A stretch of DNA of 64,000 bases from the NCBI GenBank assembly GCA_048939995.1, contig JBHLOY010000003.1:288001-352000 (forward strand). Direction: 5' to 3'. This stretch comes from Promethearchaeota archaeon. GTDB lineage: Archaea; Asgardarchaeota; Lokiarchaeia; Sigyniarchaeales; SOKP01. Position numbers and translations under genes: made by a program. The notes beneath the pieces are model-generated. The model did not search any database. It was not told the origin of the DNA and saw only the letters and a program-made list of their open reading frames with translations. Numbering within the stretch: the stretch's first letter is position 1; the number at the start of each line of letters is the position of its first letter. Of this stretch, positions 2 to 47,473 are shown in pieces.

Positions 2-709
2 AGTATTAAAGAGGAATTAGGGCAATATGGAGATGCTGCTCGAGAACATGTTGATCATGCAAAAGAGAAACTTATGAAACTCCGCGAAAGAATTGATAAA
101 CATGAAGCAAAATTTAATGAAAGACTCAAAAAGAAAGTGGAAAAAGCAGCAAAAAAAGCTGCTAGAATTAATATTTCTGTTGATCCTGACGTAAGTGATG
201 AGTGGAGAGATTGGGCAGAAGGATTAGGTGCTTCAGTATCAGAATTGGTTCGTAAGTCTATGAAGTTTGTAAAAAATAATATTGGAGATCTCCAAAAGCT
301 GGAAAAACTTGGACCAATTCTTGAAGATGCTTTTGATGGGAGTGGCATAGAAGAACTGGGAGATAAGATTGAAAAAGCCGTAAAGAAATCTGGTATTCAA
401 GATTTGGGAAAAAAAATTGAGAAATTCAAAACGAAAGATCTTGGTGCAAAAATAAAGATCGATATTTCTGATGACACTGATAAGGAACGAGCGAAGAAAA
501 GAATTCAAGGATTAATAAAACTAAAGAATTCAATACCTATTGAAAAATTAGCTCAAGTCTTAAGTATTCCCCAAGAAGAGGCAGAAAACATGATCTATGA
601 ATTAGCTGCAGAGGGCATAGAAGGCACTTTACAGGAAGGAATCTTCCAATTTGAGGGAGATTCGGAGAGAGTAATCGAAGCTCTATTTAAATTGATTGAT
701 AAATTATAA
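2..709 (+). CDS. Ribbon-helix-helix-containing protein with C-terminal winged-helix (PCI-like) domain; 5' end probably outside the window
   Basis: Frame is open from position 2 (SIKEELGQYGDAAREH...) into ORF 74..709. RINISVDPDVSDEWRDWAEGLGASVSELVRKSM fits an RHH pattern; IPIEKLAQVLSIPQEEAENMIYELAAEGIEG fits a wHTH. Confidence 0.6.
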   Translation, partial: SIKEELGQYGDAAREHVDHAKEKLMKLRERIDKHEAKFNERLKKKVEKAAKKAARINISVDPDVSDEWRDWAEGLGASVSELVRKSMKFVKNNIGDLQKLEKLGPILEDAFDGSGIEELGDKIEKAVKKSGIQDLGKKIEKFKTKDLGAKIKIDISDDTDKERAKKRIQGLIKLKNSIPIEKLAQVLSIPQEEAENMIYELAAEGIEGTLQEGIFQFEGDSERVIEALFKLIDKL

Positions 710-722
710 GGGTGTTAAAAGA

Positions 723-2009
723 ATGGAAGTAGTACCTACTAAGGAAAGTTTTAAACATTATATGTTTTTTTGGAGTGGTCAATTATTTTCTCTGCTAGGT
801 TCGATGGTGGTATTTTTTGTATTAACTTTTTGGTTAGCAGATGTATATGGGGACCCTATAATATCTTCTTTTGCTTCATTTCTATATATAATGATGATGA
901 CTATATGTATGCCTTTTGCTGGTGTAATTGCAGATAGAATTAATCGAAAATGGTTGATTATAATTGCTGATTCATCACAAGCTTTCTTTACGTTTATATT
1001 AATATTTCTATTTCAATTAGGATTAGCAAATTTTTGGATGGTTTATATCTTCATTAGTTTACGAAGTGTTTTTCAAGCATTCCATGTACCAACAGTAAAT
1101 GCAATTATTCCTACGATGGTACCAAAAGATAAATTATCAAGAATAAACGGTGTTAACTTTTTATTTACAGGTGTTGTTCAATTTTTTGCACCATTCATCG
1201 CAGCCACATTATTAGTTCTTTTCGCTTCATCAGTATATCTAATTTTCTGGATAGACATTATTACTTTTTTTATAGCATTAGCACCATTGCTATCAATTAC
1301 TATACCATTAGTTAAAGAAAGCAATCATCGCGAGACCGAGAAAAAATCTTTTAGAAAAGAATTTAAATTAGGGCTTAAAACATTAAAATTTATTCCTGGA
1401 TTAATTATAATGATAGTCCTTTCAATGCTTCTGAACTTCTTAATTAGACCTATTGATTCTCTTCTTGCTTTATTTATCATTGATGTTCATGGGGGTGGAG
1501 CAGGAGAATTAGCAATTGTCCAAATGTGTTTTACAGGAGGTATGATTGCCGGAGCTCTATTAACTTCAGTAAAAAAAAATTGGAATAATAAGATAAGAGT
1601 AATTTTTATTAGTCTTGTTTTTGCATTGCTGGGATATATGACTTTTGGAATAGCTCCCCCAGGTTTATTCCTTATAATAGGTATAGGAGGTGCTGTTTTA
1701 GGTTTCAATCTACCGATAATTAATTCGCTCTATCAAACATTCATTCAAACCACAGTTCCAGCTGATAAACTAGGAAGAGTCACTTCAATTGATCATACCG
1801 TATCTTCAGCAATTTCACCAGCTGGGTCACTACTTTCGGGACCAGTGGCCCTTTTTTTGGGCATTCCAGCTTTATTTTTCTATTGTGGATTAATTGGTGT
1901 CATTTGTACTATTGGATTTTGGACTTTTACAGGCATTAAGAAAGTTGATATGGACAGTAAGGATGCACTTGATGATATTAGTGGTAATATAAATAATATT
2001 TCAATTTAA
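723..2009 (+). CDS. MFS efflux transporter (DHA3/MefA-like)
   Basis: About 12 hydrophobic segments, with motifs FWSGQLFSLLGS, AGVIADRINRK and VPADKLGRV. The ATG at 723 is the likelier start because it avoids overlap with the upstream gene. Confidence 0.9.
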   Translation: MEVVPTKESFKHYMFFWSGQLFSLLGSMVVFFVLTFWLADVYGDPIISSFASFLYIMMMTICMPFAGVIADRINRKWLIIIADSSQAFFTFILIFLFQLGLANFWMVYIFISLRSVFQAFHVPTVNAIIPTMVPKDKLSRINGVNFLFTGVVQFFAPFIAATLLVLFASSVYLIFWIDIITFFIALAPLLSITIPLVKESNHRETEKKSFRKEFKLGLKTLKFIPGLIIMIVLSMLLNFLIRPIDSLLALFIIDVHGGGAGELAIVQMCFTGGMIAGALLTSVKKNWNNKIRVIFISLVFALLGYMTFGIAPPGLFLIIGIGGAVLGFNLPIINSLYQTFIQTTVPADKLGRVTSIDHTVSSAISPAGSLLSGPVALFLGIPALFFYCGLIGVICTIGFWTFTGIKKVDMDSKDALDDISGNINNISI

Positions 2010-4580: not shown

Positions 4581-5297
4581 TCAGAATTTATAGATTACCT
4601 CAAAGGGTAAATCATTAAAAATATCTTCCGCAAGTTTTTTAAATTCTCCATCTAAGGCTTTATATCCCCTACAAGCATAATTCTTTAGAAGAAATTTAGT
4701 TGGTAGTAACTCCGATACTAATTTTTTCAATCCGAGTAAACTTTTCTGATTATCGTTAATTCCTTCTAAAATTACGCTTACTACGATTAGTTCTCCTTTA
4801 AATGTTTTTCTAAATAACCTCACCCCTTCAATTAAATCTTCTAAATAAATTCCCTCGTGTTGTCTACATATCTCTTGAAATTCATTTGGAATAACACTCA
4901 CGAGTTCAATTAACATTAAATCACACAAAGAACAATCTTCTCTTACTTCCTTGCGAGAAAGGAGGGAACCATTCGTTGAAATTCCAATTTTTATGTTTGG
5001 ATACATTCTTTTTATTAACATTGAAAGCTGTTTAAAAGACGCATAAAGAGTAGGTTCTCCAAATCCCGTCATCCAAACAATATTGGGTTCTCCTTTTAGT
5101 TCAATATATTCTCTAATTTCTCTAAAAATATCTCCAGGAGGATAAAATTCTTTTCTTTCAATGGTTTTATCTGTTGTTGGACCAGTTCCACAATAAATAC
5201 AATTAAAATTACATACTTTGAAAGGGTTAAAATTTATAGATAAAACTTTACCAAATCTACTGTCTTCTTTAAATCCCTTAACAAATTTCCACCCCAT
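4581..5297 (-). CDS. Radical SAM protein, COG0731-like (cassette copy 1, intact CxxxCxxC)
   Basis: CNFNCIYC, GFGEPTL, TNGSLL and GINDN motifs. Confidence 0.9.
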   Translation of the reverse strand: MGWKFVKGFKEDSRFGKVLSINFNPFKVCNFNCIYCGTGPTTDKTIERKEFYPPGDIFREIREYIELKGEPNIVWMTGFGEPTLYASFKQLSMLIKRMYPNIKIGISTNGSLLSRKEVREDCSLCDLMLIELVSVIPNEFQEICRQHEGIYLEDLIEGVRLFRKTFKGELIVVSVILEGINDNQKSLLGLKKLVSELLPTKFLLKNYACRGYKALDGEFKKLAEDIFNDLPFEVIYKF

Positions 5298-5321: not shown

Positions 5322-7862
5322 TTAATCTTCATCTGAATTTAATTCAAATTGCTTTATCTTTAATAAATAATTGTTAGCTTTCTTTAACCAATGCTCCTTT
5401 TTCTCCATTTCACATAAACATGAATGGGTGTAATCCTTCCCTTGTTCTAACATTTGGATGGATAGGTCATATTCTTTAAGATGATAGAAACAAATACCCA
5501 TTTTAATGAAAGTTTGATATACAAAAAACCCATAAGGCTCTAGACCTATAGCTGTTTTAAATAACTCGATTGCCTTCTTATAATGTTTAAATATCATTAA
5601 TATTTCTCCATACGAATCATGGTAATTTCCATTGTTTGGCTCTAAACTTACTAATTTTTCAGCTAAATCAATTGATTCTTTCTCACGATCTAGATAAGCT
5701 AAACCATAAACCATACTATTTACTAAATCATTGTCATCATGATATAATTCCATGAGTTTACTTAAAATTTCGTATGATTCCTCATATCTCTTCGGATCAT
5801 TTTCATAATAACCCATCTTAATCAACATATATGCTTTTTTATGCAATATATGCTTACTCTTGTCAGGAAACATAGGTAAAATTTCAGCTATCAATTCTAA
5901 TGCTTCATCAAATCTTTTGCCTAAGTTATACCCAAGTATCTTATTGTAGTAATAATCAATAATTTTAGGTCTTAACTCAATTGCCTCATCAATTGCTTCA
6001 AATGCTTCTTCAAATTGTCTTAACTCAAATAAAATTATTGCTTTTAACTGATAACATCGTGAGATGTTTAATTCACTTGACTCGAGAGAGATTGCCTCCT
6101 CGATTTCTTTGACAAACTTGTCTAATTTAACCTGATTTTTGTCCCATTCGAAAATAGTATTATATCCCAGTACCATTGCTCTATTCAAATGAGAAATAGG
6201 ATGATCGGAGTGAAAACTTATACTATCCTCTGAAATTTTGAATGCTTTCTTAAAATCCCCTATTGATAAATGTGAAAAGCTAAGAATAAATAAAATTACC
6301 GGTATAAGATCATTTCGGCCTAATTCCTCCAATTTATCAAGTTGTTTATCTAAAATTTCAATTGCTTCTTTCAGGTTACTATATAGACATAGAACAATTG
6401 ACTTTAATATGTACAACTCAACTTTTTTTGCATCAGATTTAAGTGCAGAACCAATTAGTTCCAAAGCTTTGTTCACATCTTTATTATCAATACAAGACAA
6501 CACTTCTTTAAATAATGGTTTAATGTCTTTGATATAATATTCTGCTAATGCTTTCAAAACTTCTGGATATAAATAATACCTTACTTCTTTCTGCCCTTTA
6601 AGAGGATGATCCAAATCTTCTGATTCAATAGTTCTGAGCATTAATGGGATATTTTCATAAATAAATCCCTCTAACTTATCAGAAGCATCTACTAACTGTT
6701 TCTCAGTTTCAACTTTATAGGATAAATATTTGATGTATTCTGGTAAAAATTCTTTTAGAGATCCCTTTAAATTTTTATGAAATAAATCATTGCAAATATC
6801 ATCAATAATATCATCAATTAAGGTATACATTGTATAATAAGGATATCCACTTAATTTATTTAGATAAGTAAATTTCGTTACATAATCGTCAACAATAGCT
6901 CGAAGCACCCGCTCAATTTTTTCATCTGACTGAAAATAAAAATGCTTATCACCATCAAATTTCAAACTCCAAAATTTAATCGGATAGATCTCCTTCTCTA
7001 CAATCTGATGAATATGAAATTTCAAGATGATCTCTTCAATATCATATCGTAAAGCAAATTCATCTGGAGAAATATATCTTGGATATGAATCAGGATGATT
7101 TATCGAGAAAAATAGTAATAACTTCTTGAAATCTTCCTCATCATCTAGTGAATTCTGCACTTTAGCATAATCCATCTTTAATACATTATTTAAAAATCGA
7201 AATTTTACATCCTTATCCTCAATACTATACTTTCTAAAGAATTCTCGCGTCTTTTTGGTGATCTCTTCAATCCTTTTACTCTCTTCCTCTAAAATAGATT
7301 GTCGGTCAAGATCATATAATCGTAACATGCGAGAATACTCTATTTTTCCCGCTTCTGTAATCTTATATCGCTTATTATCTTTCTGGACATAACTATTCTC
7401 CATTAATAGATTTAAATTTTTTGAGAGTGATGATTGGTTTATATAAACAGGTGTATTCTCCCTAAGAAAATCACTCCATTTGCAGTAACTATTATTGTAT
7501 AACATCCATAAGATCCAATGATCATAATTCCTCCTTCTTAAAACCGCTTTGGGAGGATAATTCAATCTCCTCTTTGATTTTTTCCGACGCGATAATTCAT
7601 GATACCTCTCTCTACCGGCATTTGTAATTATATAGATACCTCTCTTGATATTCTCTATATATCCTTTACTTTCTAACCGATTCTTGTAATTTGAAAGGGT
7701 TGATTGACTAATACTTACTGGATCTTCAGTAAAATGAGACCATTCACACTCATTATTATTATATAACATCCAAAGTATAATAAGCTCAAAATTTCTCTTA
7801 CCCATAGGAGAATTAGATAAAATTTCTTCAGGAGGCAAGTTTACTTGCTCACTTTTACTCAT
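5322..7862 (-). CDS. Tandem winged-helix + TPR putative transcriptional regulator (cassette copy 1)
   Basis: Two N-terminal ILWMLYNN..C.WS.F...I.QS.LS wHTH repeats and a C-terminal TPR array. The ATG at 7862 (MSKSEQV) matches the paralog N-termini better than 7937. Confidence 0.8.
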   Translation of the reverse strand: MSKSEQVNLPPEEILSNSPMGKRNFELIILWMLYNNNECEWSHFTEDPVSISQSTLSNYKNRLESKGYIENIKRGIYIITNAGRERYHELSRRKKSKRRLNYPPKAVLRRRNYDHWILWMLYNNSYCKWSDFLRENTPVYINQSSLSKNLNLLMENSYVQKDNKRYKITEAGKIEYSRMLRLYDLDRQSILEEESKRIEEITKKTREFFRKYSIEDKDVKFRFLNNVLKMDYAKVQNSLDDEEDFKKLLLFFSINHPDSYPRYISPDEFALRYDIEEIILKFHIHQIVEKEIYPIKFWSLKFDGDKHFYFQSDEKIERVLRAIVDDYVTKFTYLNKLSGYPYYTMYTLIDDIIDDICNDLFHKNLKGSLKEFLPEYIKYLSYKVETEKQLVDASDKLEGFIYENIPLMLRTIESEDLDHPLKGQKEVRYYLYPEVLKALAEYYIKDIKPLFKEVLSCIDNKDVNKALELIGSALKSDAKKVELYILKSIVLCLYSNLKEAIEILDKQLDKLEELGRNDLIPVILFILSFSHLSIGDFKKAFKISEDSISFHSDHPISHLNRAMVLGYNTIFEWDKNQVKLDKFVKEIEEAISLESSELNISRCYQLKAIILFELRQFEEAFEAIDEAIELRPKIIDYYYNKILGYNLGKRFDEALELIAEILPMFPDKSKHILHKKAYMLIKMGYYENDPKRYEESYEILSKLMELYHDDNDLVNSMVYGLAYLDREKESIDLAEKLVSLEPNNGNYHDSYGEILMIFKHYKKAIELFKTAIGLEPYGFFVYQTFIKMGICFYHLKEYDLSIQMLEQGKDYTHSCLCEMEKKEHWLKKANNYLLKIKQFELNSDED

Positions 7863-7956
7863 AACAATAACTCTTTTACGGTAATCTATTCCATAATATA
7901 TAATTAGTAAAAGTTCAATATAAGGTTTCTCGTTCACAAGTCGATATGAACATTAT

Positions 7957-7974
7957 TTGAAGTTCGAACTTCAA
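7957..7974. promoter_or_regulatory. Perfect 18-bp palindrome, putative operator
   Basis: TTGAAGTTCGAACTTCAA in the divergent intergenic region; its TGAAGT-N4-ACTTCA core recurs at 34753-34768. Confidence 0.6.
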
Positions 7975-8058
7975 CTGAACAACATGAAGATAAACTAAAT
8001 ATGCACTTAGTGATTATAATTTCTTAAGAAAAAAAACTTAAAAAAGGAGTTAAAAAAA

Positions 8059-8319
8059 ATGGTACAAGTATATGAAAAGCATGGAATAGAAGACCTATTA
8101 GAGGTTAAAGCATGTGTAGTAGAGTCGCTCCCTGTAGTAGAGGAATGCACAGAATGCAGAGAAAGTAAAGAGGAGCAGAGCAAATCGCGATCATTTTTCA
8201 ATAGACTTTCAAAAAAGAACGTTAATTCCAAATCAAACGCTAAAATTTTAGAGGAGCAAGTCCATATCGACAAGCTCAAGCGTGGACTTCCTATTTCAGG
8301 GAGATTTTATATGGGCTAA
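8059..8319 (+). CDS. Small protein divergent from wHTH-TPR copy 1
   Basis: AAGGAG RBS upstream; the N-terminus MVQVYEK...LLEV resembles MVQVLEK...LVEV at 34866. Confidence 0.7.
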   Translation: MVQVYEKHGIEDLLEVKACVVESLPVVEECTECRESKEEQSKSRSFFNRLSKKNVNSKSNAKILEEQVHIDKLKRGLPISGRFYMG

Positions 8320-8361
8320 AAAAGCCGAATATTAAAAAAATTAAAAAATGAGGAGAGAAAA

Positions 8362-8433
8362 ATGAATAAAAATGAAGAATTAAGAGTATCTGATATAATA
8401 GTTATTCAGAATCCAGCATATATAATGTATTAA
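8362..8433 (+). CDS. 23-aa peptide MNKNEELRVSDIIVIQNPAYIMY (below the ORF-track size cutoff)
   Basis: GAGGAG RBS upstream; paralog of identical length at 11356-11427. Confidence 0.65.
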   Translation: MNKNEELRVSDIIVIQNPAYIMY

Positions 8434-8503
8434 ATAAATCAATCAATTTTTTTATTTTTAATTAACCATTACGGGTACATTTTTCATTTCCATTATTGAC
8501 ACA

Positions 8504-8562
8504 TAAGGGAGGGGTGTTGGATTGATTTTTTATCACTTTTCCTTTACCTTTTCCCTCCCTTA
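8504..8562. repeat. Hairpin element copy 1 (TAAGGGAGGG-N39-CCCTCCCTTA)
   Basis: 10-bp perfect inverted repeat; homologous copy at 23235-23293. Confidence 0.65.
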
Positions 8563-8592
8563 ACCTTTATCTTTTTAAATTGTATTTTGATT

Positions 8593-9096
8593 TTAAAAGG
8601 CTGAATGGCATTCTTCCACAATAGTACATGTCGGACAGACTTTACGTTTCATATGAATAAGCATTAAAGATAGCGCAGCTATAAATCCAATTAAAAATAT
8701 TAAAGCAAATAAAGAAAAGTTCAGAAAAAACGAAATAATTATTAAAATAATTGGTGAAAAAAACGTTATGAAAAAATTGATGCTCCATTTTTTTGCACAA
8801 GTTACATGCTTCTTTAGATACATTTCTTTCCATTTATCTAAAGGCAAGAGATTCGTGCTAATCATTCCTGTCTCATCATCTGTTGTTGTTTCCTTTACCC
8901 TATAATAACAATATTGACAATGCTTTAATGGCATTGCAAAAAAGTAAAACCCTATATAAAATGTTAAATACACCATAGCAACCCAAAAGTTAAGAAATAT
9001 TATCCCTATAGTACCAAAAGCCAACATAGCAAACCTCAAAACCCATTGAACTACAGGTTTAGTGTAGGGACACTTTAAATTAAATATCATATTCAT
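8593..9096 (-). CDS. Membrane protein with Cys clusters (hypothetical)
   Basis: About 4 TM segments; CQYC and CPTC...C motifs. Confidence 0.7.
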   Translation of the reverse strand: MNMIFNLKCPYTKPVVQWVLRFAMLAFGTIGIIFLNFWVAMVYLTFYIGFYFFAMPLKHCQYCYYRVKETTTDDETGMISTNLLPLDKWKEMYLKKHVTCAKKWSINFFITFFSPIILIIISFFLNFSLFALIFLIGFIAALSLMLIHMKRKVCPTCTIVEECHSAF

Positions 9097-9235
9097 TCAA
9101 CCTAGATTAAATTAACTATTTACAATTTCTCAATGCTTCATTTCTTTTATATTTGGTTTTTTCTAAGCAGTAATATTATTTTGGGGTAAAAACAGATATA
9201 GTAAGCTTTTAACAAGATTTTTCAATAAAAATTTC

Positions 9236-9263
9236 ATTGAACTTAGACGCTGAATTTACCTTC
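9236..9263. repeat. 28-bp intergenic repeat, copy A
   Basis: ATTGAACTTAGACGCTGAATTTACCTTC. Confidence 0.7.
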
Positions 9264-9278
9264 TATAACAAGTTAAGT

Positions 9279-9737
9279 TCATTCTGATAATTTTTTCTTT
9301 TTAATTTTTCTAATATAGATAATCAAATAGCCCGCAGGAATTGAAAGACTAAAGCCCCATAATGGAGATCTAAATATAAATAGAATACTCCCTATTGAAT
9401 AAAGAAAACGAATGATGAATTTTAATGCTCGATTTCTCAATGGTTTTTTTTTTAGAATTTGAATCAAATATTGAAAAATTGAGGGGATCCAGCACAGGAA
9501 GAAAACTAGGATAATTATTGGCAGGCTAATGAAATTTACTATGAAATAATAGAATATGTTCCCAATTATTAATGCAATAGTCGCACCCAGCAAAAAAGCA
9601 AAACATCCTATACAAACAGTATAGTTAAATATATAAAATATATGATCATTAAAATCATCCCGTTCTGGATCATGATGTGCTAACCAAGTGAGTATTATTC
9701 TTTTATCCTTTTGAAATTCTTCTTTTTGGTTTTGCAT
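9279..9737 (-). CDS. Membrane protein, DUF2085-like
   Basis: HHDPER...VCIGC followed by TM helices, resembling the CHQxPER...VCARC motif of DUF2085. Confidence 0.55.
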   Translation of the reverse strand: MQNQKEEFQKDKRIILTWLAHHDPERDDFNDHIFYIFNYTVCIGCFAFLLGATIALIIGNIFYYFIVNFISLPIIILVFFLCWIPSIFQYLIQILKKKPLRNRALKFIIRFLYSIGSILFIFRSPLWGFSLSIPAGYLIIYIRKIKKKKLSE

Positions 9738-9759
9738 CCTTCTACTCCATTATTTAAGA

Positions 9760-10080
9760 TTAACAACTTGCACAGACTGCTCCTTTTGATCCAATAGCAA
9801 GGAGAATTAAACCTATTATAATAAGCGTTATTCCTACAGGCAATGATGAAGGTAGTGAAAAAACTCCCGCAATCGTTAATATAGCTCCAATCAGAAATAT
9901 TATGATTAAAGTTAGAGTAGATGATTTAATTTTAAGTCCTTGTCCTGAGGTGGATCTAAATTTTGAAAGTCTTATTATCTTATTTGAACCGCATTTGGGA
10001 CATTGTGGTAAGTCTTCTTCTTCAGTAGCCAGGCAATATTTACAATTTTGACACACTAAAAATTTCCTTTTCTCCCCCAT
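9760..10080 (-). CDS. Zn-ribbon + two-TM small protein
   Basis: CQNC...CPKCGS then two hydrophobic helices. ATG 10080 (MGEKRK) is the likely start; the ORF extends to 10143. Confidence 0.7.
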   Translation of the reverse strand: MGEKRKFLVCQNCKYCLATEEEDLPQCPKCGSNKIIRLSKFRSTSGQGLKIKSSTLTLIIIFLIGAILTIAGVFSLPSSLPVGITLIIIGLILLAIGSKGAVCASC

Positions 10081-10225
10081 TTTAACTTTATCTCTCTCTA
10101 CTAGAATTTTTTGTTCAGAATCAAATAAAAATAAAGATACCATTTTATAAATTTTATCTAAAAAAAATTCATCTTGAAGAATCGTCTATTTCAACTTCCG
10201 TAAGAATTTCTAGCATTGAATTTTT

Positions 10226-10253
10226 ATTGAAATCAGACCCTGAATTTACCTTC
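10226..10253. repeat. 28-bp intergenic repeat, copy B
   Basis: ATTGAAATCAGACCCTGAATTTACCTTC. Confidence 0.7.
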
Positions 10254-10389
10254 CCAAACCAATTTCGTTGAAAATTGGGATAAAATTTAAAATAGTTTGA
10301 ACGTTTTTAGAATGATTATTGTAAATTGAATAGAAAATTTTTTTATTGATCTTTATTCGATAACAAGTTATAAAAAACGGATTTATAGA

Positions 10390-11205
10390 ATGATGTTCGT
10401 AATCAAAATGCTATTAGGCAAGGTTAAATTTAATGCTTGGAAAAGAAAAAACATTATTGAAGATTACGTCGATATCGGAGATATCAAAATGTATTATGCC
10501 ATGTTCGGTACTGGAGAGCCAGTTTTTTTATTACATGGCGGGATGGTAGATTACACAAGTTGGTTTTTTCAAATCAAAGAATTAGCAAAACATTTTCAGA
10601 TAATCGCTCCAGATACTCGAGCTCATGGAAGGACAACAGATTCAGATAAGCCTTTAAGTTATCATCTCTTTGCTTCAGATATTTCTCAAATGATGGAGAA
10701 ATTGGAAATAAAAAAAGCAAGTTTCGTAGGTTGGAGCGATGGGGGGTGCACTTCCTTGGTTCTTGGTCTACAGCATCCTGAATTAGTAAATAAGTTAGTA
10801 TTAATTGGTACTCCATATAATATATCTAATTTTTATCCTGATATCTTTGAAAGTTTTAATAATCTAAATCCTAATAATTTACCTAAAGATTATAAATTTA
10901 TTAAAAAAGCATATGAGAAAGTAGCATTAGATCCGGATAATTGGCCAATTCTAATCGAAAAAGAATTGAATATGGCTAAGAGAGAACCAAATTTCACGTT
11001 AGACCAATTGAAGAGCATTAAAAGTCCCTCACTTATTATTGATGGAGAAGGTGAACGCCTTTATCCATTAAAAGTTATTCAAGAAATGGCTGATGCTATA
11101 CCTAATGCGCAACTCGAAATTATTCCAGGTGGGACACATTTAGTTCTTATGGAGAAACCTAAACTAATAAACCGACTAATTGTAAGTTTTTTGAAGAATG
11201 ACTAA
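10390..11205 (+). CDS. Alpha/beta hydrolase
   Basis: LLHGG, DTRAHGRT, GWSDGG nucleophile motif and C-terminal His (GTHL). Confidence 0.9.
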   Translation: MMFVIKMLLGKVKFNAWKRKNIIEDYVDIGDIKMYYAMFGTGEPVFLLHGGMVDYTSWFFQIKELAKHFQIIAPDTRAHGRTTDSDKPLSYHLFASDISQMMEKLEIKKASFVGWSDGGCTSLVLGLQHPELVNKLVLIGTPYNISNFYPDIFESFNNLNPNNLPKDYKFIKKAYEKVALDPDNWPILIEKELNMAKREPNFTLDQLKSIKSPSLIIDGEGERLYPLKVIQEMADAIPNAQLEIIPGGTHLVLMEKPKLINRLIVSFLKND

Positions 11206-11233
11206 ATTGAATTCAGACTCTGAATTTTTCTTG
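11206..11233. repeat. 28-bp intergenic repeat, copy C
   Basis: ATTGAATTCAGACTCTGAATTTTTCTTG, with a palindromic AATTCAGA-C-TCTGAATT core. Confidence 0.65.
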
Positions 11234-11257
11234 AACTCCATGTTTAAATTAAATATT

Positions 11258-11279
11258 GGTCTCTACAAACTCTTTATAT
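11258..11279 (+). promoter_or_regulatory. Putative BRE/TATA promoter element upstream of the peptide gene
   Basis: GGTCTCTACAAACTCTTTATAT; near-identical copy at 23166-23187. Confidence 0.45.
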
Positions 11280-11355
11280 CGGGTTTAAATATTAAGAATT
11301 AGGAAAGTAAATTTTTCTCATTTCGATAAAAAATTAAAAAGTGAGGAGAAAGAGT

Positions 11356-11427
11356 ATGAATAAAGAAGGAAGAAAAAAGTCACCCAAGATAGTGGTTATT
11401 TATAATCCCGCATATATAATTTACTAA
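11356..11427 (+). CDS. 23-aa peptide MNKEGRKKSPKIVVIYNPAYIIY (below the ORF-track size cutoff)
   Basis: GTGAGGAG RBS upstream; paralog of 8362-8433. Confidence 0.65.
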   Translation: MNKEGRKKSPKIVVIYNPAYIIY

Positions 11428-11544
11428 TCAAATTTTTTTACTTTTTTTAAATTCATCATGAATTTCACGGGTACTATATTTTTAAAAGTGAAACTATCTA
11501 TATTTTAATATAAACTTAATTTAACTTTAAAGTGGAGGGTAAAA

Positions 11545-12267
11545 ATGGTAAATAATTATTATTTAAAAAATAAAGTAAAATTAACTACTCAATTTGAAAA
11601 GTATTTACATATATCAAAAGAATTATTGCTAAAGAAATTCAATGAACTGGAAATAGAAGAGATTTTTAATAAAATGCGAAATGAATATGAGAGTCTAATC
11701 CCAGAAATACCATATATCGGGGGTAAGAAAAATCCTTCCACACCTATGCTGATAGATTGTGTTGCTATGCTAGTATTTTTTCGCATTCTTGAACAAGCAG
11801 GGGTGACCTACCGTGAAATTGGGGAATTTAGTTATGAATTTTGGGAAAAGGTAAACGGGATAAGAGTCCATAAATTAGAAAAAGCAGGTCAAAATCCTGT
11901 AGATCAATATTTTAACGACACTTATATCAATTTTAATAAAAGTTACGCAAAAACAACACAACTAAAAGAATATCCAGACGATTTTGTTATGGAGTTTGTA
12001 GAAGGCGATGGTAAAACATTTGATTACGGTTATACTTTTACGGAATGTGGAATTCATAAAGTTTTTAAAAAGTTAGGGGCTGAGAAGTACGTTCCCTTCT
12101 TATGCTTGTCCGATTTTGCTCAGGCTAATATATTTGGATATGGATTTACACGAACTCAAACTATTGGGAATGGTGCTCTATTATGCGACCATCGATTTTT
12201 AAAAAAGGGGTCAACTCCACGAGCTTGGCCTCCAGATAATCTGCAAGAATTTAAGATGAAATTATAG
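11545..12267 (+). CDS. L-2-amino-thiazoline-4-carboxylic acid hydrolase-family (V4R-like) protein
   Basis: TECGIHK...LCLSDF...FTRTQTIGNGALLCDHRF pattern. Confidence 0.8.
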   Translation: MVNNYYLKNKVKLTTQFEKYLHISKELLLKKFNELEIEEIFNKMRNEYESLIPEIPYIGGKKNPSTPMLIDCVAMLVFFRILEQAGVTYREIGEFSYEFWEKVNGIRVHKLEKAGQNPVDQYFNDTYINFNKSYAKTTQLKEYPDDFVMEFVEGDGKTFDYGYTFTECGIHKVFKKLGAEKYVPFLCLSDFAQANIFGYGFTRTQTIGNGALLCDHRFLKKGSTPRAWPPDNLQEFKMKL

Positions 12268-12308
12268 CTTTCAGTTAACATTATAAAATAAGAAAAAAAA
12301 TAGTAAAT

Positions 12309-12485
12309 TTACTTAAATAAGTTTTCAAAGAGAGGAGAAGCTCCTACAGGAATAAATTCGTACTCAACTAGTTCTTCTCTTACAAATGGTAAGTCTTTAA
12401 TATAATTTTTAGCTTCATCAACATCTTTGCATTCAAGAACTAGCATAAGACCTGGCTTATCTGTTCTGAAATAAAATTCTCGGAA
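12309..12485 (-). pseudogene. 3' fragment of a muconolactone-isomerase-like (dimeric alpha/beta barrel) protein
   Basis: Minus-strand translation FREFYFRTDKPGLMLVLECKDVDEAKNYIKDLPFVREELVEYEFIPVGASPLFENLFK*; no N-terminus or start codon before the next gene. Confidence 0.5.
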
Positions 12486-23187: not shown

Positions 23188-23234
23188 TGAAGATAATTCT
23201 AAAAAATTAAGAAAAGTTTTTCATTTCCATATTT

Positions 23235-23293
23235 TAAGAGAGGGTATTGGATTGGTCTTTTATTAACTTCTTCTTTAATTTTTCCCTCCCTTA
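23235..23293. repeat. Hairpin element copy 2 (TAAGAGAGGG-N39-CCCTCCCTTA)
   Basis: Same stem, same 39-nt loop length and shared TTGGATTG loop sequence as 8504-8562. Confidence 0.65.
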
Positions 23294-23308
23294 ATTTAAT
23301 TCTTTAAC

Positions 23309-24257: not shown

Positions 24258-24914
24258 TTAAAATCTAAATGACACCTTGAATGGAAGATCGTGAAAAATC
24301 TCTTTAAGTTTGGTCTTAAATTCATCAGAGACTGACTCTAAATCTTTACCTGTAAAAACATTTACTGAAAAATGATCTGGGGTAATCTCTAGTAAATATT
24401 TCTTCAAGTCTCGAACTGTATCTAAATCATCATTTACTCCCTTGAAAAACATAGTATAAATTCTAAAATTCCCTTTAAATTCTTTTCTAAAAATTCTAAT
24501 TCCCTTTAAAATTTCTTGAACGTTAAAGAAATCAAAACAAATGCAAGATTTATGAAAATTCGAAGGAGTAACAGAATTTAAGTTAATTACTATTAAATCA
24601 CATATCAAAAGTGCCTTTCGCACTTTTTCATAATTAAAAAGAGAACAATTAATATAAACTCCCATTTTCTGATTCGGAAAACTCTCCTTAATCTTATTAA
24701 GTAAGCGATTGAATCCAAAAAATAGGTTGATATCATTAATGCCTTTTAACCAGATGTAATCGGGACTTTCCTTTTTAAGAAAATAATCCTTTAACTCACT
24801 AAATATCTCTTCAGTGGGATAATACGGAATCTGATTATCAACATAATCAAAATCTACCGGTAAAACCTTCCCAAATTTAGAACTTGTTTGGAGTTCTTTT
24901 AAATGCAGATACAA
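24258..24914 (-). CDS. Degenerate radical SAM homolog lacking CxxxCxxC (cassette copy 2)
   Basis: Aligns along its length with 4581..5297 (FGKVL, PDYIW, FRKEFKG, GVND, DLPFKV), but the Cys triad segment is deleted. Confidence 0.8.
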   Translation of the reverse strand: MYLHLKELQTSSKFGKVLPVDFDYVDNQIPYYPTEEIFSELKDYFLKKESPDYIWLKGINDINLFFGFNRLLNKIKESFPNQKMGVYINCSLFNYEKVRKALLICDLIVINLNSVTPSNFHKSCICFDFFNVQEILKGIRIFRKEFKGNFRIYTMFFKGVNDDLDTVRDLKKYLLEITPDHFSVNVFTGKDLESVSDEFKTKLKEIFHDLPFKVSFRF

Positions 24915-24950: not shown

Positions 24951-27917
24951 TCAATCTTCAGATTTTTTATCGTACAAATCTTTATGAAATGAACTCATTA
25001 TTTCTGCCATCTTTTCCATTTTTTTAATCGATTTTTGTGCTTCCTCAATATTTCCAAGCTTTTCATGGCATATACTCATTTTACGATAAGTATCAGATAT
25101 ATACCATGCTGTAGGATTAATTCTTTCAGCCTCTCGTAGTTTTTCTAGTGCTTCTTCATACTTTCCTGATTCAATTAAAAGTTCTGCATACGTATCATAG
25201 GAATTCCCATCTTCAGGATCGCAACTTATTAATGTCTCTGCTGCTTCAAATGCTTCATTCATCCTATTTAATCTTAATAACATATATGCCCTATTATTCA
25301 AAAGTTCTTTATTATCTGGAAATTGTTTTAAAATTTCGTCTATATGATTTAATCCCTTATTGTAATCTTGAAGTTTATAATATATTAATGATTCTAATTT
25401 ACCTATACAATATCTTTGTTCTGGAAATTTATTGGTAATAGATTGACTTATTCCTATAGCTTCTTTATCTTTACCAAGTGACATCATGAGTAAGACTTTA
25501 GTTTTATAAAAATCAAAATCCATTGGATTTAACTTTATAGCTTCTTCAATAGCATTCAAAGCTTCTTCATTTAATCCCAGATCTCGCAATATAAAAGCCT
25601 CAGATTGTAGATAAAGTGCTTTCTTAAAATTAATCTTTTCAATATTTAAAGCATTATTGATACTCTCTTTAAAGTCATCAATAGTCAGATCATTTAATTC
25701 ACCACTATATATCAATGAATAACCAAAAACAAGGGCTTTTGAAAGGTAAGATATAGAATAATCTTGATACTTAATTTGGCTGATATTGGCAAAATCTAAC
25801 GCTTCCTTGAATCTATTACGAGCAATATATGAATACACTAAAATTAATATCGTAGAAGTATCTATTAGAGGATTTAATCCCCAAGGGTCAATAACAAAAT
25901 TTAATTCCTCTTTAATTATCTTTTCTGCCTCTCTATACTTCTTTGTAATACATAATATCAAAGCTTTTAGGATTAAAAGCTCTTTATCCAATGGTTTTAA
26001 TTTAATTGCATTATTTATCACTTCAAGAGGTTCTTTAGGTGATCTTGTACAAACACCTTCTGTGCAAACTATGGCTAAAAATTTTGTTCTTAATAGAAGA
26101 ATATTGTTTGGGAACTCAGAAATGGCTTTATTAATTACTTTGAGACCTTCAAGTTCTTGATCTTTTTTTATTAAAATTTGAGCTTTTTGGGCTATTAATG
26201 AAATATTAAACGCATTCTGAATCCCTTCTTCAACTACTTTTAATGACTTGTCTAAGAAATCCATTAAAAAGTAAGTCATTGACTGTAATAAATAGCCAAT
26301 ATAATTTTGTGGAAATTCTTGGATTATATGGTTTGTTATTTCAATTGATTCTTCGAATCTATGACCTACTGTTTTAATAATATCATTAACTACCAAACTT
26401 TCTATCTTGTCTAAATTCTGACTTTTATCATTAAATAGATTAAAAGCTTCATTAATCTTCCCATTTTTAAGCATTTGTATAATTTGACTAACAAATTCAC
26501 GATTTGATGCTTTAAAACCCTCTATGGTTTCAATATACTCAATATAATTCAATTTGCTTAAATAGAATAGATCCATTGATTCGAAAATTTGATAATACAA
26601 TGTATAATTCAATTCAGGCTCTTTCTCTAGAGTATTAGAAGCCTTAGAAGAAAAGGTCTCAAACTCTGCCGAAATTGTCTGCCAGATAAGACTTTCTAAT
26701 TTAGTCTCATCAGTTATTAACTTCTTTTCAGTTTCAATCTTGTATGCTAAATATTTTATATAGTTCGGTAAAAATTTCCTTAGAGTATCCTTTAAATTAT
26801 CATGAAATAAGTGATTACAAATTTCACTTAAGATATTTTCAATTATATTTGAAATGGTTAATGCTGGTGCCTTTTTGTTTGTATTCTCATATAAATTATT
26901 CAAATAGGTATATCGAGTTATATAATCATCTACAATTGCTCTTAAAACTCTCTCAATTTTTTCGTTCACTTGGAAATAATACACTTTATTAGGTGAAACC
27001 TCTAATTTGAAGAACTTTATTTCATAAAATTCTTCTTCCACTATTTTATCTATGAAGAAATTCAACGTCGTTTTCTTTAAATTAAAATCACTAGAAAATC
27101 TTTCAGGTGAAATATAATCTGGATATTGATTTGGATGATTTATTGATAAAAATAATAAGATTTTGTTAAAATCTTCTTCCTCTTCCAATAGGGTCTCTAC
27201 TCGAGAATAGTTTAATTTCAATACATTATTGAGAAATCTAAACTTAATTCTATCATCCTCTATTCCATATTCTTCAAAAAATTGGGTGCTAAATTTGGTA
27301 AATTCTTGAATATGCTTACTCTCTTCTTCTAATATTGATTGACGGTCTAATTCATATTCTCTTAGAACGTTAAAATATTCTGACTTACCCAATGGAGTTA
27401 TTTTATACTCTCTATTTTCATTAATAACAAAACCATTATCCATTAAGTAATTTAGAGCTCTCGATAATGAAGATTGATTTATTTTATAGAGGATTTCTTC
27501 AAATCTAATATCTTCTAAAAAGTCGGACCATTTACAAGCTTCATTATTATAAAGCATCCATAAAATCCAATGATTATATTCCCTTCTCTTTAATATAACT
27601 TGGGGAGGGTAATTTAGCCCTTTAGGGCCCTCTCTTCCATATTGTGTTAATTCCTTATATCTTTCTATACCTTCCTGAGTAATCTTATAATAATTACGTT
27701 CAGGCTTAATTATAAATCCTTTACCAATAAGCTTATCTAAATTCTGCGATAACGTTGAAGCAGGAATCTCGAGATTATCATCTGAATCATCAGTAAAATT
27801 AGACCATTCACAATGATCCTTTCCGTAAAGATTATCACTATTATATAATTTCCAAAGAATAATATATTCTGCAGAATTATTTGCGATTTTTGCAATCTGA
27901 ATTTTGGTTTTACTCAT
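24951..27917 (-). CDS. Tandem winged-helix + TPR putative regulator (cassette copy 2)
   Basis: WILWMLYNN..CKWSDF, INQSSLS, KFRFLNNVLK, SINHP.QYP and C-terminal TPRs. Confidence 0.85.
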   Translation of the reverse strand: MSKTKIQIAKIANNSAEYIILWKLYNSDNLYGKDHCEWSNFTDDSDDNLEIPASTLSQNLDKLIGKGFIIKPERNYYKITQEGIERYKELTQYGREGPKGLNYPPQVILKRREYNHWILWMLYNNEACKWSDFLEDIRFEEILYKINQSSLSRALNYLMDNGFVINENREYKITPLGKSEYFNVLREYELDRQSILEEESKHIQEFTKFSTQFFEEYGIEDDRIKFRFLNNVLKLNYSRVETLLEEEEDFNKILLFLSINHPNQYPDYISPERFSSDFNLKKTTLNFFIDKIVEEEFYEIKFFKLEVSPNKVYYFQVNEKIERVLRAIVDDYITRYTYLNNLYENTNKKAPALTISNIIENILSEICNHLFHDNLKDTLRKFLPNYIKYLAYKIETEKKLITDETKLESLIWQTISAEFETFSSKASNTLEKEPELNYTLYYQIFESMDLFYLSKLNYIEYIETIEGFKASNREFVSQIIQMLKNGKINEAFNLFNDKSQNLDKIESLVVNDIIKTVGHRFEESIEITNHIIQEFPQNYIGYLLQSMTYFLMDFLDKSLKVVEEGIQNAFNISLIAQKAQILIKKDQELEGLKVINKAISEFPNNILLLRTKFLAIVCTEGVCTRSPKEPLEVINNAIKLKPLDKELLILKALILCITKKYREAEKIIKEELNFVIDPWGLNPLIDTSTILILVYSYIARNRFKEALDFANISQIKYQDYSISYLSKALVFGYSLIYSGELNDLTIDDFKESINNALNIEKINFKKALYLQSEAFILRDLGLNEEALNAIEEAIKLNPMDFDFYKTKVLLMMSLGKDKEAIGISQSITNKFPEQRYCIGKLESLIYYKLQDYNKGLNHIDEILKQFPDNKELLNNRAYMLLRLNRMNEAFEAAETLISCDPEDGNSYDTYAELLIESGKYEEALEKLREAERINPTAWYISDTYRKMSICHEKLGNIEEAQKSIKKMEKMAEIMSSFHKDLYDKKSED

Positions 27918-28159: not shown

Positions 28160-28528
28160 ATGAGCCAAAATGTCGCGATATCAAGATATACAGATTCATT
28201 AGCAGCTGTTGAAACCATTCTTGAAGATTATTGGAAACCTAAAATTATCCCTCTTGAAAGTTTGGAACAGAAGCCTAAAACTAAAGAAAATCTGCATGAT
28301 ACGATTGCGGCTCAAAAAAGTCTTACGTACACTATTACGTTAAATGTGACTATTTTAGTGAGTTCAATTGGAGGGCTCTTACTGTTGATAACAATTAGCC
28401 CGTTATTAATACCCTTTAATATAATAATAATAATGGCATTTGCATTGGTCCAAGCTTTAGTTATAATAAAAAGCGAGACTGAATGTATTATGAAAAAAAT
28501 TAAGAAGAGGATGAGTAGGACAAAATGA
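28160..28528 (+). CDS. Small two-TM protein divergent from wHTH-TPR copy 2
   Basis: 122-aa ORF with a hydrophobic hairpin. Confidence 0.6.
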   Translation: MSQNVAISRYTDSLAAVETILEDYWKPKIIPLESLEQKPKTKENLHDTIAAQKSLTYTITLNVTILVSSIGGLLLLITISPLLIPFNIIIIMAFALVQALVIIKSETECIMKKIKKRMSRTK

Positions 28529-31704: not shown

Positions 31705-34659
31705 TTAATTATACATATCTTTTATTAATGGTAATGTCTTTCCTTTTACCTCATTCATTTTTTTAAAGCATTTTTTAGCTTCCTCTGTATTACCAAGATT
31801 TTTATAACATTCTCCCATTTTGCGGTAGGTTTCAAAAATATACCATCCTGAGGGATTGATTTCAATCGCTTTTTCAAATTTCTCTATCGCACTTTCATAT
31901 CTTTTCAGTTCCATCAAAATTTCTCCATAAGTATCATAAGAATTTCCTTCTTCGGGATCAATTTCTATTAATTTCTCTATTGTTTCAAGTGCTTCTTCTA
32001 ATCTGTTCAATTTAACTAATATTAATGCTTTATTATTTTGCAGTGGCTTGTTATTCGGATCCTCAGCAAGAACTTCATCAATAGCATTTAAACCCGAATT
32101 ATAATCTTTTATCTTAAAATATATGAATGATTTAAGCAGGTTCATTTTAAGCAAATGTTTTGGGAAATTTTCAATTATCAGATCAATGAGCCTAATTGCT
32201 TCATTGTCTCTATTCATTGCAATCATGAAAATAACTTTTGATTTATAATAGTCTATATCCCTATCATTCAGTTTAATTGCCTCATCTATTGCATCTATCG
32301 CATCTTGATGTTTTCCAATCTGATTTAATATTATGGCTTTTAATTGGTAGTACATAGCTCTATTAAATTTGAGAGGATCAATTAAAGCTTTATCTATTTC
32401 AGTATTGAAATCATCTAAAGTAACTCCTTCTAGATTGCCATTGTAAATAAGAGAATAACCAAACACAAGAGCATTTATTACAAAAGAAATTGGATTATTT
32501 GGATAAGTAGCTAAGCATTGATTTGCCACTTTTAATGCATCACCAAACCTGCCACGCCCTATATATGAGTGAGCTAAAAGTAATAAGGCAGAAGTATCAA
32601 TAAGCGGATTCGGTTCAAAAGGATTTATTGCAAAATTCAATTCATCTTTAATAATATTTTCTGCATCTTTAAATTTTGAATTAAGACTAAATAGTGCTGC
32701 TTTTAAGATTATCAAATCCTTATTCATTGGTTTTAACTTAATAGCTGTCTCAATCAAATTCACGGGTTTTTCAAAGTTTTTTTGGCAGAATTCTACTTGT
32801 TTAACCATTGCTGAAAACTTGGTGCGCAATAATAAGACATTATTAGGGTTCTTGGAAATTGCTTTTTCAATGATCTTTTGGCCTTCCTCTTCTTCATCTT
32901 TTCTAATGAGAATCTGAGTCTTTTGGGCGATTAAAACAAAATTATATGCATTTTTTATTCCTTGTTCAATTATATCTAATGATTTCTCTAAATCATTCAT
33001 CAAGAAATAAGTAATTGATTGAAATAAGTAACCTAAATAATCTTTAGGTCTTTTTTCGATTAATTTATCAGTAATTTCAATTGACTCTTGAAATCTAAAT
33101 TGTGAGGTATAAATTAAATCTTGAAATATCAATTTTTCAATTTCGTTTAATTTATCTTGTCTATTATTAAATAGAGATAGTACATCACTAAAATCACCTT
33201 TTCTTAAAATTTGTACAAATTCATCTAATAATTCTAAGTTGGATGGAGAAATCTCATCATAACTTTCAATATATTCTATAAAGTCTAACTTATATAAGTA
33301 AAATATATTTAGCGTCTCAAAGAACTCATTATTAAGCACATAACTTACTTCACCTTCCTTTTCTTGGCTCTCAGAAGGTCTAATTGAAAATGCCTCAAAT
33401 TCAGTTGAGATTGCCTGCCAAATTAAACTTTCTAATTTAGATTCATCGGTTACCAATTTTTTCTCGGTTCCAATCTTATATGCTAAATCCTTTATATATT
33501 GTGGTAAAAATCTCAAGAAAGCATCTTTTAAATCCTCATGGAATAAAATTACGCAGCCTTCACTTACTATTTTATTAATTATAGAACTAATATCGATAGA
33601 GGAAGGTTTATCACTTACAAATTCGCTTAATTTGTTCAAATATGTGAATTTCGTTATTTTTTCATCTACTGATGCCCTTAACATTCTTTCAAGTTTTTCA
33701 TTTTCCTGAAAGTAAAGTTCTTTACTGGGAAATACATCTAATTTGAAGAATTTTGTATCATAGAGATCTTGATCTACTATTTTTTGTATGAAAAATTTTA
33801 AGGTGTTTATATCAATATCATATTCGGAAGAAAATTGTTCAATTGATATGTATTTTGGATATTGATCCGGGTGATTCATAGATAAAAACAAGAGAATTTT
33901 GTAAAACTCTTCTTTATCTTCAACCATTGTTTTGACTTTTGCATAATCTAATTTTATTATGTTATTCAAGAACCTGAATTTTACATCATCATCTTTAATT
34001 TGATAAGCCTTAAAGAAATCAATAGTTTCTCTTGTAATTTGCTCAATTCTTTTACTTTCTTCCTCTAAAAGTGATTGGCGATCTAAATCATATGACTTTA
34101 GTATCTTTAGATATTCAGTTTCTCCTAAAGAAGTAATTACGTAATCTTTATTGTTGTTCTTTTGAATATAACCACTTTCTATCAATGAATTTAGACTGTT
34201 AGATAGAGAGGATTGATTGATAGATAGCGGCTCATCCTTGAAATCAGACCATCTACATGAATTATTATTATATAGCATCCATAGAATGCAATGTTCATAG
34301 TTTCTCTTATTTATAATCAACCTTGGTGGATAATTTAGTTTACTTTCTACTTCATCCTTTTTCCTGGATAATTCAAAGAGCCGTTCTTTTCCCTTAGAAG
34401 TAATTTTATAAACATTACAAATTCTTTCATTTTTTTTCTTAGAGACTTTCATAATATAACCTCCATCCATTAAGCGATTTAACCAATTAGAAAGAGTGGA
34501 TTGACTTATATTGACTGGATCATTTGTAAAGTGAGACCATTCCAACTCCTCATTATAATTTAGCATCCAAAGAATAATTTGATCGAATCTTTTTTTACTA
34601 AATGGAGGGGGAGAGATTATTTCATCAGGTGGATAAGATATAATATCTGTTATACCCAT
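31705..34659 (-). CDS. Tandem winged-helix + TPR putative regulator (cassette copy 3)
   Basis: Two ILWML.NN..WS.F...I.QS.LS wHTH repeats, conserved middle domain and C-terminal TPRs. Confidence 0.85.
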   Translation of the reverse strand: MGITDIISYPPDEIISPPPFSKKRFDQIILWMLNYNEELEWSHFTNDPVNISQSTLSNWLNRLMDGGYIMKVSKKKNERICNVYKITSKGKERLFELSRKKDEVESKLNYPPRLIINKRNYEHCILWMLYNNNSCRWSDFKDEPLSINQSSLSNSLNSLIESGYIQKNNNKDYVITSLGETEYLKILKSYDLDRQSLLEEESKRIEQITRETIDFFKAYQIKDDDVKFRFLNNIIKLDYAKVKTMVEDKEEFYKILLFLSMNHPDQYPKYISIEQFSSEYDIDINTLKFFIQKIVDQDLYDTKFFKLDVFPSKELYFQENEKLERMLRASVDEKITKFTYLNKLSEFVSDKPSSIDISSIINKIVSEGCVILFHEDLKDAFLRFLPQYIKDLAYKIGTEKKLVTDESKLESLIWQAISTEFEAFSIRPSESQEKEGEVSYVLNNEFFETLNIFYLYKLDFIEYIESYDEISPSNLELLDEFVQILRKGDFSDVLSLFNNRQDKLNEIEKLIFQDLIYTSQFRFQESIEITDKLIEKRPKDYLGYLFQSITYFLMNDLEKSLDIIEQGIKNAYNFVLIAQKTQILIRKDEEEEGQKIIEKAISKNPNNVLLLRTKFSAMVKQVEFCQKNFEKPVNLIETAIKLKPMNKDLIILKAALFSLNSKFKDAENIIKDELNFAINPFEPNPLIDTSALLLLAHSYIGRGRFGDALKVANQCLATYPNNPISFVINALVFGYSLIYNGNLEGVTLDDFNTEIDKALIDPLKFNRAMYYQLKAIILNQIGKHQDAIDAIDEAIKLNDRDIDYYKSKVIFMIAMNRDNEAIRLIDLIIENFPKHLLKMNLLKSFIYFKIKDYNSGLNAIDEVLAEDPNNKPLQNNKALILVKLNRLEEALETIEKLIEIDPEEGNSYDTYGEILMELKRYESAIEKFEKAIEINPSGWYIFETYRKMGECYKNLGNTEEAKKCFKKMNEVKGKTLPLIKDMYN

Positions 34660-34865: not shown

Positions 34866-35081
34866 ATGGTTCAAGTATTAGAAAAGCCCCAGGAAATAGT
34901 TTTAGTTGAAGTTCCTGAGGTTAAAAAGGAAGTAAAAGCCAGTAAGATTCAAGAAATAAAAGCAAAACTTAGTCGAGTAAAAGACTATGCTAAAAAGCAT
35001 GAATATTACTTGAATATAAAAGACGTTAAAACCGAAATGGCTACAAATTCCTATGGCATGAGACTATTTAGGAATTATTAA
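34866..35081 (+). CDS. Small protein divergent from wHTH-TPR copy 3
   Basis: MVQVLEK N-terminus shared with 8059..8319; followed by a T-rich terminator-like tract. Confidence 0.7.
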   Translation: MVQVLEKPQEIVLVEVPEVKKEVKASKIQEIKAKLSRVKDYAKKHEYYLNIKDVKTEMATNSYGMRLFRNY

Positions 35082-39371: not shown

Positions 39372-39394
39372 GTCCTAAAATTGCACCTTACCTT

Positions 39395-40522: not shown

Positions 40523-40539
40523 CTTATTTCACTTCTATT

Positions 40540-43849: not shown

Positions 43850-44055
43850 TTCTTTTACCTTAAAATTTTGTTTCCATGTTAAATCGAAAATTCCAATTAT
43901 AAATTACAATATAATATATGGATTAATCATATTGCAATAATTCATAAAAATATTTTTTAATCTACAAATATTTTAATAGAACTTGTATTTAAATTTCTGG
44001 AGCTAATTTTCATAAGTTTAAATATTTATTGAAAAAAAATTTTACATATATTTTT

Positions 44056-47471: not shown

Positions 47472-47473
47472 AT

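Follow-up and report, generated by a model that had tools for sequence, protein, structure and literature searches.

A regulator–peptide module in one family of Lokiarchaeia: 20–29-residue peptides facing a predicted winged-helix/TPR regulator

In groups I and II of the Rgg/SHP systems, a short peptide gene lies divergent from a regulator carrying tetratricopeptide repeats (TPRs; PMC13361665), and receptors of the RRNPP(A) type are built on a core of five TPRs, with an optional single N-terminal helix-turn-helix (HTH) and four optional extra TPRs (PMC12700828). Here, we analysed a stretch of 64,000 nucleotides from a Promethearchaeota archaeon (assembly GCA_048939995.1, contig JBHLOY010000003.1, positions 288,001 to 352,000; hereafter the window), in which an earlier note had pointed out two paralogous and unannotated open reading frames (ORFs) of 23 codons resembling streptococcal SHP pheromones. 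These two ORFs belong to a regulator–peptide module confined to one family of Lokiarchaeia. By analogy, the module may work like an RRNPP circuit, but it is not an RRNPP system, because both the receptor architecture and the hydrophobic leader of these systems are missing.

The likeness to Rgg/SHP is mainly one of layout. Indeed, an unannotated gene of about 22–23 codons lies divergent from a regulator whose DNA-binding part is N-terminal and whose TPR region is C-terminal (PMC13361665, PMC12700828), an operator precedes the peptide gene, several paralogous pairs occur per genome, and a variable N-terminal half of the peptide is followed by a conserved C-terminal half. The RopB/leaderless communication peptide (LCP) pair is also comparable, as the Asgard peptides likewise have no secretion leader and are divergent from a TPR-type regulator (PMC10518010, PMC13361665); however, LCPs are 8–10 aa long, whereas the Asgard peptides have 20–29 aa and a basic N-terminus. 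The two ORFs and their local signals are as follows:

8362..8433, plus strand: peptide gene copy 1, 23 aa, type E-I, in the ancestral position as second gene of the divergent unit, with syntenic orthologs in genomes G258, G262, G237 and G240
11356..11427, plus strand: peptide gene copy 2, 23 aa, net charge +4, apparently an intact local duplicate, with 52% identity to copy 1 and no operator–promoter match upstream
8350..8355, plus strand: Shine–Dalgarno (SD) sequence GAGGAG of copy 1
11343..11348, plus strand: SD sequence GAGGAG of copy 2
8447..8459, plus strand: T-tract 3′ of copy 1, a probable archaeal terminator (all 48 family members have a T-tract)
11433..11448, plus strand: T-tract 3′ of copy 2

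Both ORFs with their GAGGAG sequences, the T-tracts and the 8-nt motif behind them (ACGGGTAC, at 8471–8478 after copy 1 and 11467–11474 after copy 2) are found as the earlier note had described them, and copy 1 does lie directly behind the 86-aa divergent gene, starting 42 nt after its end. The 8-nt motif, however, occurs 14 times genome-wide, and here forms the head of a conserved downstream element. The contrast drawn between a variable N-half and a conserved C-half is equally real (18/33 versus 32/39 identical nucleotides between the copies): the changes at Pro18 (CCA/CCC) and Tyr23 (TAT/TAC) are synonymous, and the amino acid differs at 11 codons. Copies 1 and 2 are the only short ORFs with a C-terminal NPAY motif in this 3.75-Mb genome.

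An exact DNA pattern run over 400 genomes of the phylum retrieved true orthologs in two congeners only; matches of the exact motif in other Asgard families were discarded as chance hits (antisense, out-of-frame or within long genes). Two rounds of profile search did yield close homologs (E ≤ 3e-8) in 17 of the family's 135 genomes. These fall into two subfamilies: the window type is 23 aa long with a final Tyr/Phe, and the other type is 24 aa long with a hydrophobic residue before a final Arg. Their pooled pairwise ratios of nonsynonymous to synonymous substitution (dN/dS), a check called for in the earlier note, are 0.30 (n = 12) and 0.31 (n = 9), respectively; a ratio of about 0.3 indicates purifying selection on the reading frame. 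By part, dN/dS is 0.125 in the core, 0.50 in the N-half (unselected) and 0.29 in the last three codons, the pairs not being independent and the core value being biased because the core served to choose the members. Codon variation is highest at third positions, Pro18 being encoded by all four Pro codons among homologs, four of the five other reading frames are closed in all 12 close homologs and in nearly all members overall, and start, stop and SD sequence are kept. Judged from these sequence comparisons, both ORFs are real conserved peptide genes under purifying selection, whose translation is predicted. The conserved DNA or RNA element directly 3′ of copy 1 could suggest that the ORFs are untranslated by-products of a conserved non-coding element, but this is very improbable in view of the substitution pattern just given, and the hairpin of this element is absent after most family members.

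G260, G263 and G265 likewise have two peptides each. The present genome encodes a third paralog outside the window (25 aa, C37:24344, minus strand), with operator, promoter and T-tract, directly opposite a paralog of the regulator (C37:24528). In the window, the regulator side of the module comprises:

5322..7862, minus strand: predicted regulator, 846 aa (winged helices 25–180, middle region 187–410, TPR superhelix 433–845)
7957..7983, no strand assigned: operator-like element, a perfect 18-bp palindrome (7957–7974) plus half-sites matching the family consensus GAACTTC-N4-GAAGTT
7992..8002, plus strand: conserved BRE/TATA-like promoter box AAACTAAATAT, 57 nt ahead of the start of the type C gene
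8059..8319, plus strand: type C small protein, 86 aa, first gene of the divergent unit and a divergent member of a 68-member family

Public genomes contributed 79 regulator loci in which the same order recurs: the regulator and, on the opposite strand, a type C protein of 70–97 aa, then a basic peptide of 20–29 aa, sometimes with further micro-ORFs and often with a major facilitator superfamily (MFS) transporter or a small GTPase. The peptide gene, second in the divergent unit of the window, is the first in several loci. Peptides defined by motif were found on the divergent strand of 45/90 regulator loci and on the other strand of 0/90, with a pattern trained on these same 90 loci; the former figure is inflated by this training, since the frozen pattern recovered 2/17 held-out loci. 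A motif-free rule (ATG, 20–31 aa, basic start, SD sequence, T-tract), written after this result and hence not fully blind, detected a peptide gene on the divergent strand in 12/17 held-out loci, on the other strand in 0/17, and in 3/1411 cases in the genome background. Recovery of 12 loci without the motif versus two with it indicates that the link between regulator and micro-peptide is general and that peptide sequences are clade-variable; peptide subtypes follow the regulator clades. An automatic peptide label on the tree gave false calls, and the resulting count of changes was left unused.

A search with one regulator query found relatives in 103 of the 134 family genomes and in one genome of a sister family, against 0 of the other 264 genomes sampled; none was found in viral contigs. 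The present genome holds eight regulator paralogs, two more of them in the window (24951–27917 and 31705–34659), which face different small genes (28160–28528 and 34866–35081, respectively) across a variant palindrome.

The AAACTAAATAT box lies 52–57 nt before the first start codon, with the half-sites upstream, also at stand-alone peptide genes of another genus; stand-alone genes distant from any regulator keep this same operator and promoter arrangement. In a scan of the present genome with an operator–promoter matrix, the window site ranked first, the site of the third peptide gene (C37) second and a site before an MFS gene third, copy 2 showing no operator match. By comparison with archaeal activators, an operator placed directly before a weak TATA-like box would suggest activation. 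Stand-alone peptide genes repeatedly adjoin a 349-aa gene resembling, by eye, GyrI-like small-molecule-binding proteins (L071, L078, L081, L085 and L132).

In the structure model of the regulator (mean pLDDT 86), a pair of winged helices is followed by a middle part of 230 residues and then by a superhelix of about 22 TPR helices. Among the structural matches to the TPR region are solved structures of complexes with peptides (Pins:Insc, Z 21.2; LGN, Z 20.7; PlcR–PapR, Z 15.8), and the closest ones (Z 20.7–24.0) are Pins/LGN, TPR subunits of APC/C and Tom70, which bind partner tails or extended peptides. However, the repeat fold alone is shared with these proteins (10–17% identity), with no evidence of homology or common function. 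The peptide subtype ending in a hydrophobic residue plus Arg recalls the IR-tail of APC/C, a lead only. RRNPP receptors align with the TPR region below generic superhelices such as OGT (Z 24.0), RapI reaching Z 17.5 (rmsd 8.2, 334 residues aligned, rank 19) and PlcR the value given above, and none is among the best 50 Foldseek rows for the regulator. The Asgard system departs from Rgg/SHP in being archaeal and in having two winged helices, the middle region and some 22 TPR helices rather than an HTH followed by five or nine TPRs. It also differs in its basic, hydrophilic peptides without a hydrophobic leader, which are accompanied by the larger type C protein and other micro-proteins, and in that no dedicated PptAB or Eep gene was seen at the Asgard loci. 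M50 peptidase genes and 13 matches to family-5 solute-binding proteins are present in the genome, both being common in control genomes.

The resemblance to SHP pheromones, as the earlier note had worded it, does not extend to the peptides themselves. Members of the wider family (20–29 aa) mostly carry a net charge of +3 to +7 (median +4; copy 1, −1), their median grand average of hydropathy (GRAVY) is −0.53, and their longest hydrophobic run spans two to five residues, within a short Ile/Val strand. Their C-terminal end often reads N-x-x-[YF]-x-x-(aromatic or R): Asn at −7 together with Tyr/Phe at −4 is found in 28/48 peptides versus 0.8% of random short ORFs. Across the 68 type C proteins, the last residue is Tyr/Phe in 54 and Tyr/Phe stands at −4 in 48, giving a typical [YF]-x-x-[YF] ending that is no longer present in the type C protein of the window. 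That two co-regulated families repeat a pattern anchored at the C-terminus suggests either that one reader recognises both kinds of C-terminal tail or that something acts close to the stop codon.

The type C protein of the window has no Pfam or NCBIfam match, and its structure model, helical and of low confidence (pLDDT 62, pTM 0.27), is too poor for a structural search; an Atlas feature search with it gave no usable match. Concordance between the last residues of type C protein and peptide was too weak to be used (four basic–basic pairs deriving from two sister pairs, and eight discordant ones), and a likeness to the eukaryotic sorting signals NPxY and YxxPhi was set aside, the Pro not being kept across the wider family. 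Other micro-proteins are found in the same arrays (L043, L044, L119, L122, L217, L247 and L260): peptides of 22–31 aa ending with a G-x-K-D-L motif, a 22-aa cationic peptide with one Cys, proteins of 58–85 aa with an internal NPRY, and a small four-Cys zinc-ribbon protein.

Our tentative preference, held at somewhat less than an even chance, is that the regulator induces the peptides and that these act back on its TPR domain, an action we infer. In this scheme, the winged helices would bind the operator just upstream of the weak TATA box and switch the unit on; the peptide, mainly through its last seven residues, would then target the TPR superhelix of the cognate regulator, closing a feedback loop that would govern regulon output (MFS pump, small GTPase and other small proteins). 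The loop would most simply be intracellular, as the peptides have no export leader, although exit through the MFS transporter and return through an oligopeptide permease would be possible. Feedback on the TPR domain is favoured because the TPR regulator is the constant partner of the peptides, because its fold commonly binds partner tails and because the peptide subtypes follow the regulator clades.

Several observations weigh against such feedback. Conservation is lower in the TPR region (0.50–0.58) than in the DNA-binding end (0.64–0.74), and many of the conserved lysines of the TPR region occupy positions common in TPR repeats. The agreement of subtypes with clades is expected from joint inheritance alone, half of the regulator loci yielded no peptide by the motif criterion, and in some regulator clades the genes opposite are larger or secreted ones. 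A profile comparison of the peptide and type C families gave no significant match (probability 1.3%), and as it does not link the two families their shared ending may be convergent. Lastly, operator control marks the peptides as targets, which fits effector peptides and leader peptides equally well. A complex prediction between TPR residues 425–846 and copy 1, lengthened by seven in-frame upstream codons to 30 residues, scored 0.02 and counts neither way.

A stronger version of the signalling idea is that a peptide-signal circuit has arisen independently in Asgard archaea, each paralog of the winged-helix/TPR regulator reading its own leaderless peptide, the peptides leaving and re-entering cells and the subtypes representing specificity groups. 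We consider this unlikely; if true, cell-to-cell signalling by peptides would be established for the first time in the archaeal relatives of eukaryotes, and its ligand–receptor pairs would already be named and open to synthesis and testing. Neither a description of the regulator–peptide module nor a peptide signal or peptide-gated transcription factor in Asgard archaea was found in the literature searched, in which the module is apparently undescribed. In any case, it provides concrete and cheap pairs for testing: a predicted regulator, a candidate operator and peptides of 20–29 aa that gene callers miss. It is present in 103/134 genomes of one family of Lokiarchaeia, often in several copies, and adjoins small GTPases and efflux pumps to which no control circuit is currently assigned.

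Genes recurring around the loci bear on what the peptides do. The first of these in the window is:

696..2009, plus strand: MefA/EntS-like MFS transporter, a recurring neighbour of the module

In neighbourhoods with a median length of 10.8 kb, some of them cut by contig ends, an MFS gene accompanies 16/45 peptide loci versus 6/45 loci without peptide, in some cases with its own operator–promoter. This enrichment, together with the mostly positive charge, the high variability and the tandem arrays of several peptide types, would suit leaderless cationic effectors (antimicrobial or surface-acting) controlled by the regulator and exported by the co-located MFS transporter. Such outputs are also unlikely, given that the MFS gene was not seen in 29/45 loci, that the peptides are short and hydrophilic with a net charge of −1 for copy 1, and that no recurring immunity-like gene was noticed at the loci.

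The surroundings of the stop codon would suit cis-acting leader or arrest peptides, in which ribosomes pausing at the last codons would shield the T-tract and allow read-through into a downstream pump, GTPase or detoxification gene. Indeed, the conserved residues stand at a fixed distance from the stop codon, 9–17 T residues lie within 20 nt 3′ of it in 48/48 family members (an SD-like word preceding 44/48), and the next gene is on the same strand in 42/56 members, as for copy 2, none of these genes having the module promoter box directly before it. Yet the remaining 14/56, copy 1 among them, have only a convergent gene downstream (two further cases being undetermined), the downstream genes are mutually unrelated, and several peptide genes can stand in tandem, each with its own promoter, which makes this mode of action rather improbable. 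If the peptides were nevertheless effectors or leaders, they would still be a new family of conserved micro-proteins whose regulon has been mapped.

A small GTPase gene is present at 14/45 peptide loci, often as the next gene, so that the peptides could be intracellular partners of this Rab-like GTPase or of the MFS transporter, the TPR domain binding something else. We give this little credence, as GTPase genes are commoner at loci without peptide (30/45) and no GTPase homolog was found near the window's regulator.

The last neighbour to be considered is an enzyme:

4581..5297, minus strand: radical S-adenosylmethionine (SAM) protein, 238 aa, directly behind the regulator, accessory and not universal

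Clusters for ribosomally synthesized and post-translationally modified peptides (RiPPs), including radical SAM types, are known in archaea from genome mining (PMC12144867). Radical SAM (RaS)-RiPP operons controlled by Rgg/SHP similarly group a radical SAM gene and a transporter gene with a regulator and micro-ORFs (PMC13361665); the Asgard gene differs in following the regulator rather than the precursor, and in being short, often degenerate and absent from most loci. Of the two roles offered in the earlier note, signal peptide or radical SAM substrate, the former would share its layout with Rgg/SHP systems, synteny and a shared operator tying the peptides to the winged-helix/TPR regulator. 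For the latter, the aromatic C-terminal core of a RiPP precursor would be cross-linked by the neighbouring enzyme, whose gene directly follows the regulator in the clade with this subtype and has homologs at 12/45 peptide loci versus 3/45 loci without peptide; Tyr at −4 is moreover invariant in the 12 close homologs, partly through the way in which this set was selected. Nonetheless, a substrate role appears quite improbable: no homolog was seen in 33/45 loci and any CxxxCxxC protein in only six of the 45, the 238-aa protein matches Pfam Radical_SAM only, with all NCBIfam maturase scores far below cut-off and no match to a SPASM/twitch or precursor-recognition domain, and the would-be leader is the less conserved half of the peptide. 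A radical-SAM-like paralog behind one of the window's other regulators (24258–24914, behind 24951–27917) is without the cysteine triad.

The region between and behind the two copies bears on the origin of copy 2:

8471..8563, plus strand: conserved non-coding element after copy 1, with a ACGGGTAC head, a TTTTCATTTCC block and a 10-bp stem (8504–8563)
11467..11474, plus strand: ACGGGTAC, truncated remnant of the hairpin element after copy 2
11545..12267, plus strand: ATC_hydrolase-family gene behind copy 2, found in G262 behind the single peptide gene

The congeners G258 and G262 have one peptide match each, and in G262 the hairpin element and, beyond it, the ATC_hydrolase gene come after the peptide gene. 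Because this succession is shared, copy 2 resembles, from sequence, a partial duplicate that some 3 kb of inserted genes separate from copy 1. SD sequence, frame and T-tract are retained in copy 2; its 52% identity to copy 1, versus 83% for the orthologs, indicates that the duplication is old or that copy 2 came from another lineage.

A second copy of the hairpin element lies at 23217–23307 in direct orientation, so that two elements bracket a variable region of 14.7 kb here and about 1.8 kb in G258. The stem pairs an SD-like with an anti-SD-like sequence; covariation is negligible (one compensatory change), and no Rfam match was found within 7800–12400. A 28-bp repeat with a palindromic core (9236–9263, 10226–10253 and 11206–11233) separates the genes inserted between the peptide copies; its six genome copies all lie at gene boundaries (reversed control, 0), a longer 48-bp form occurs in L182 and L189, and the repeat may be the scar of a mobile element or a site of recombination. 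A conserved structured element of another kind, made of an inverted repeat and a G-rich/C-rich hairpin, follows the type C gene in the other large genus (L041–L045, L051, L059, L186 and L207).

Two regulator relatives outside the window have other company. At C17:217157–236478, a 431-aa paralog, too short for a TPR region, is surrounded by secreted proteins and by three proteins of the oligopeptide-binding type, with operator-like sites, a further such site preceding a cluster that resembles, by eye, ubiquitin-like, E2-like and E1-like genes. At C1:3626, as in L055 and L182, the neighbours of a paralog are an 84-aa ORF and genes for a small GTPase, a type C protein and, probably, a B12-dependent radical SAM enzyme; a B12 radical SAM gene is also present in the window (35868–37328). 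Further along the window, several ORFs of 375–654 aa, most of them without Pfam match, fill 37407–48685, and an ORF of at least 2704 codons (55888–64000) runs off the window end.

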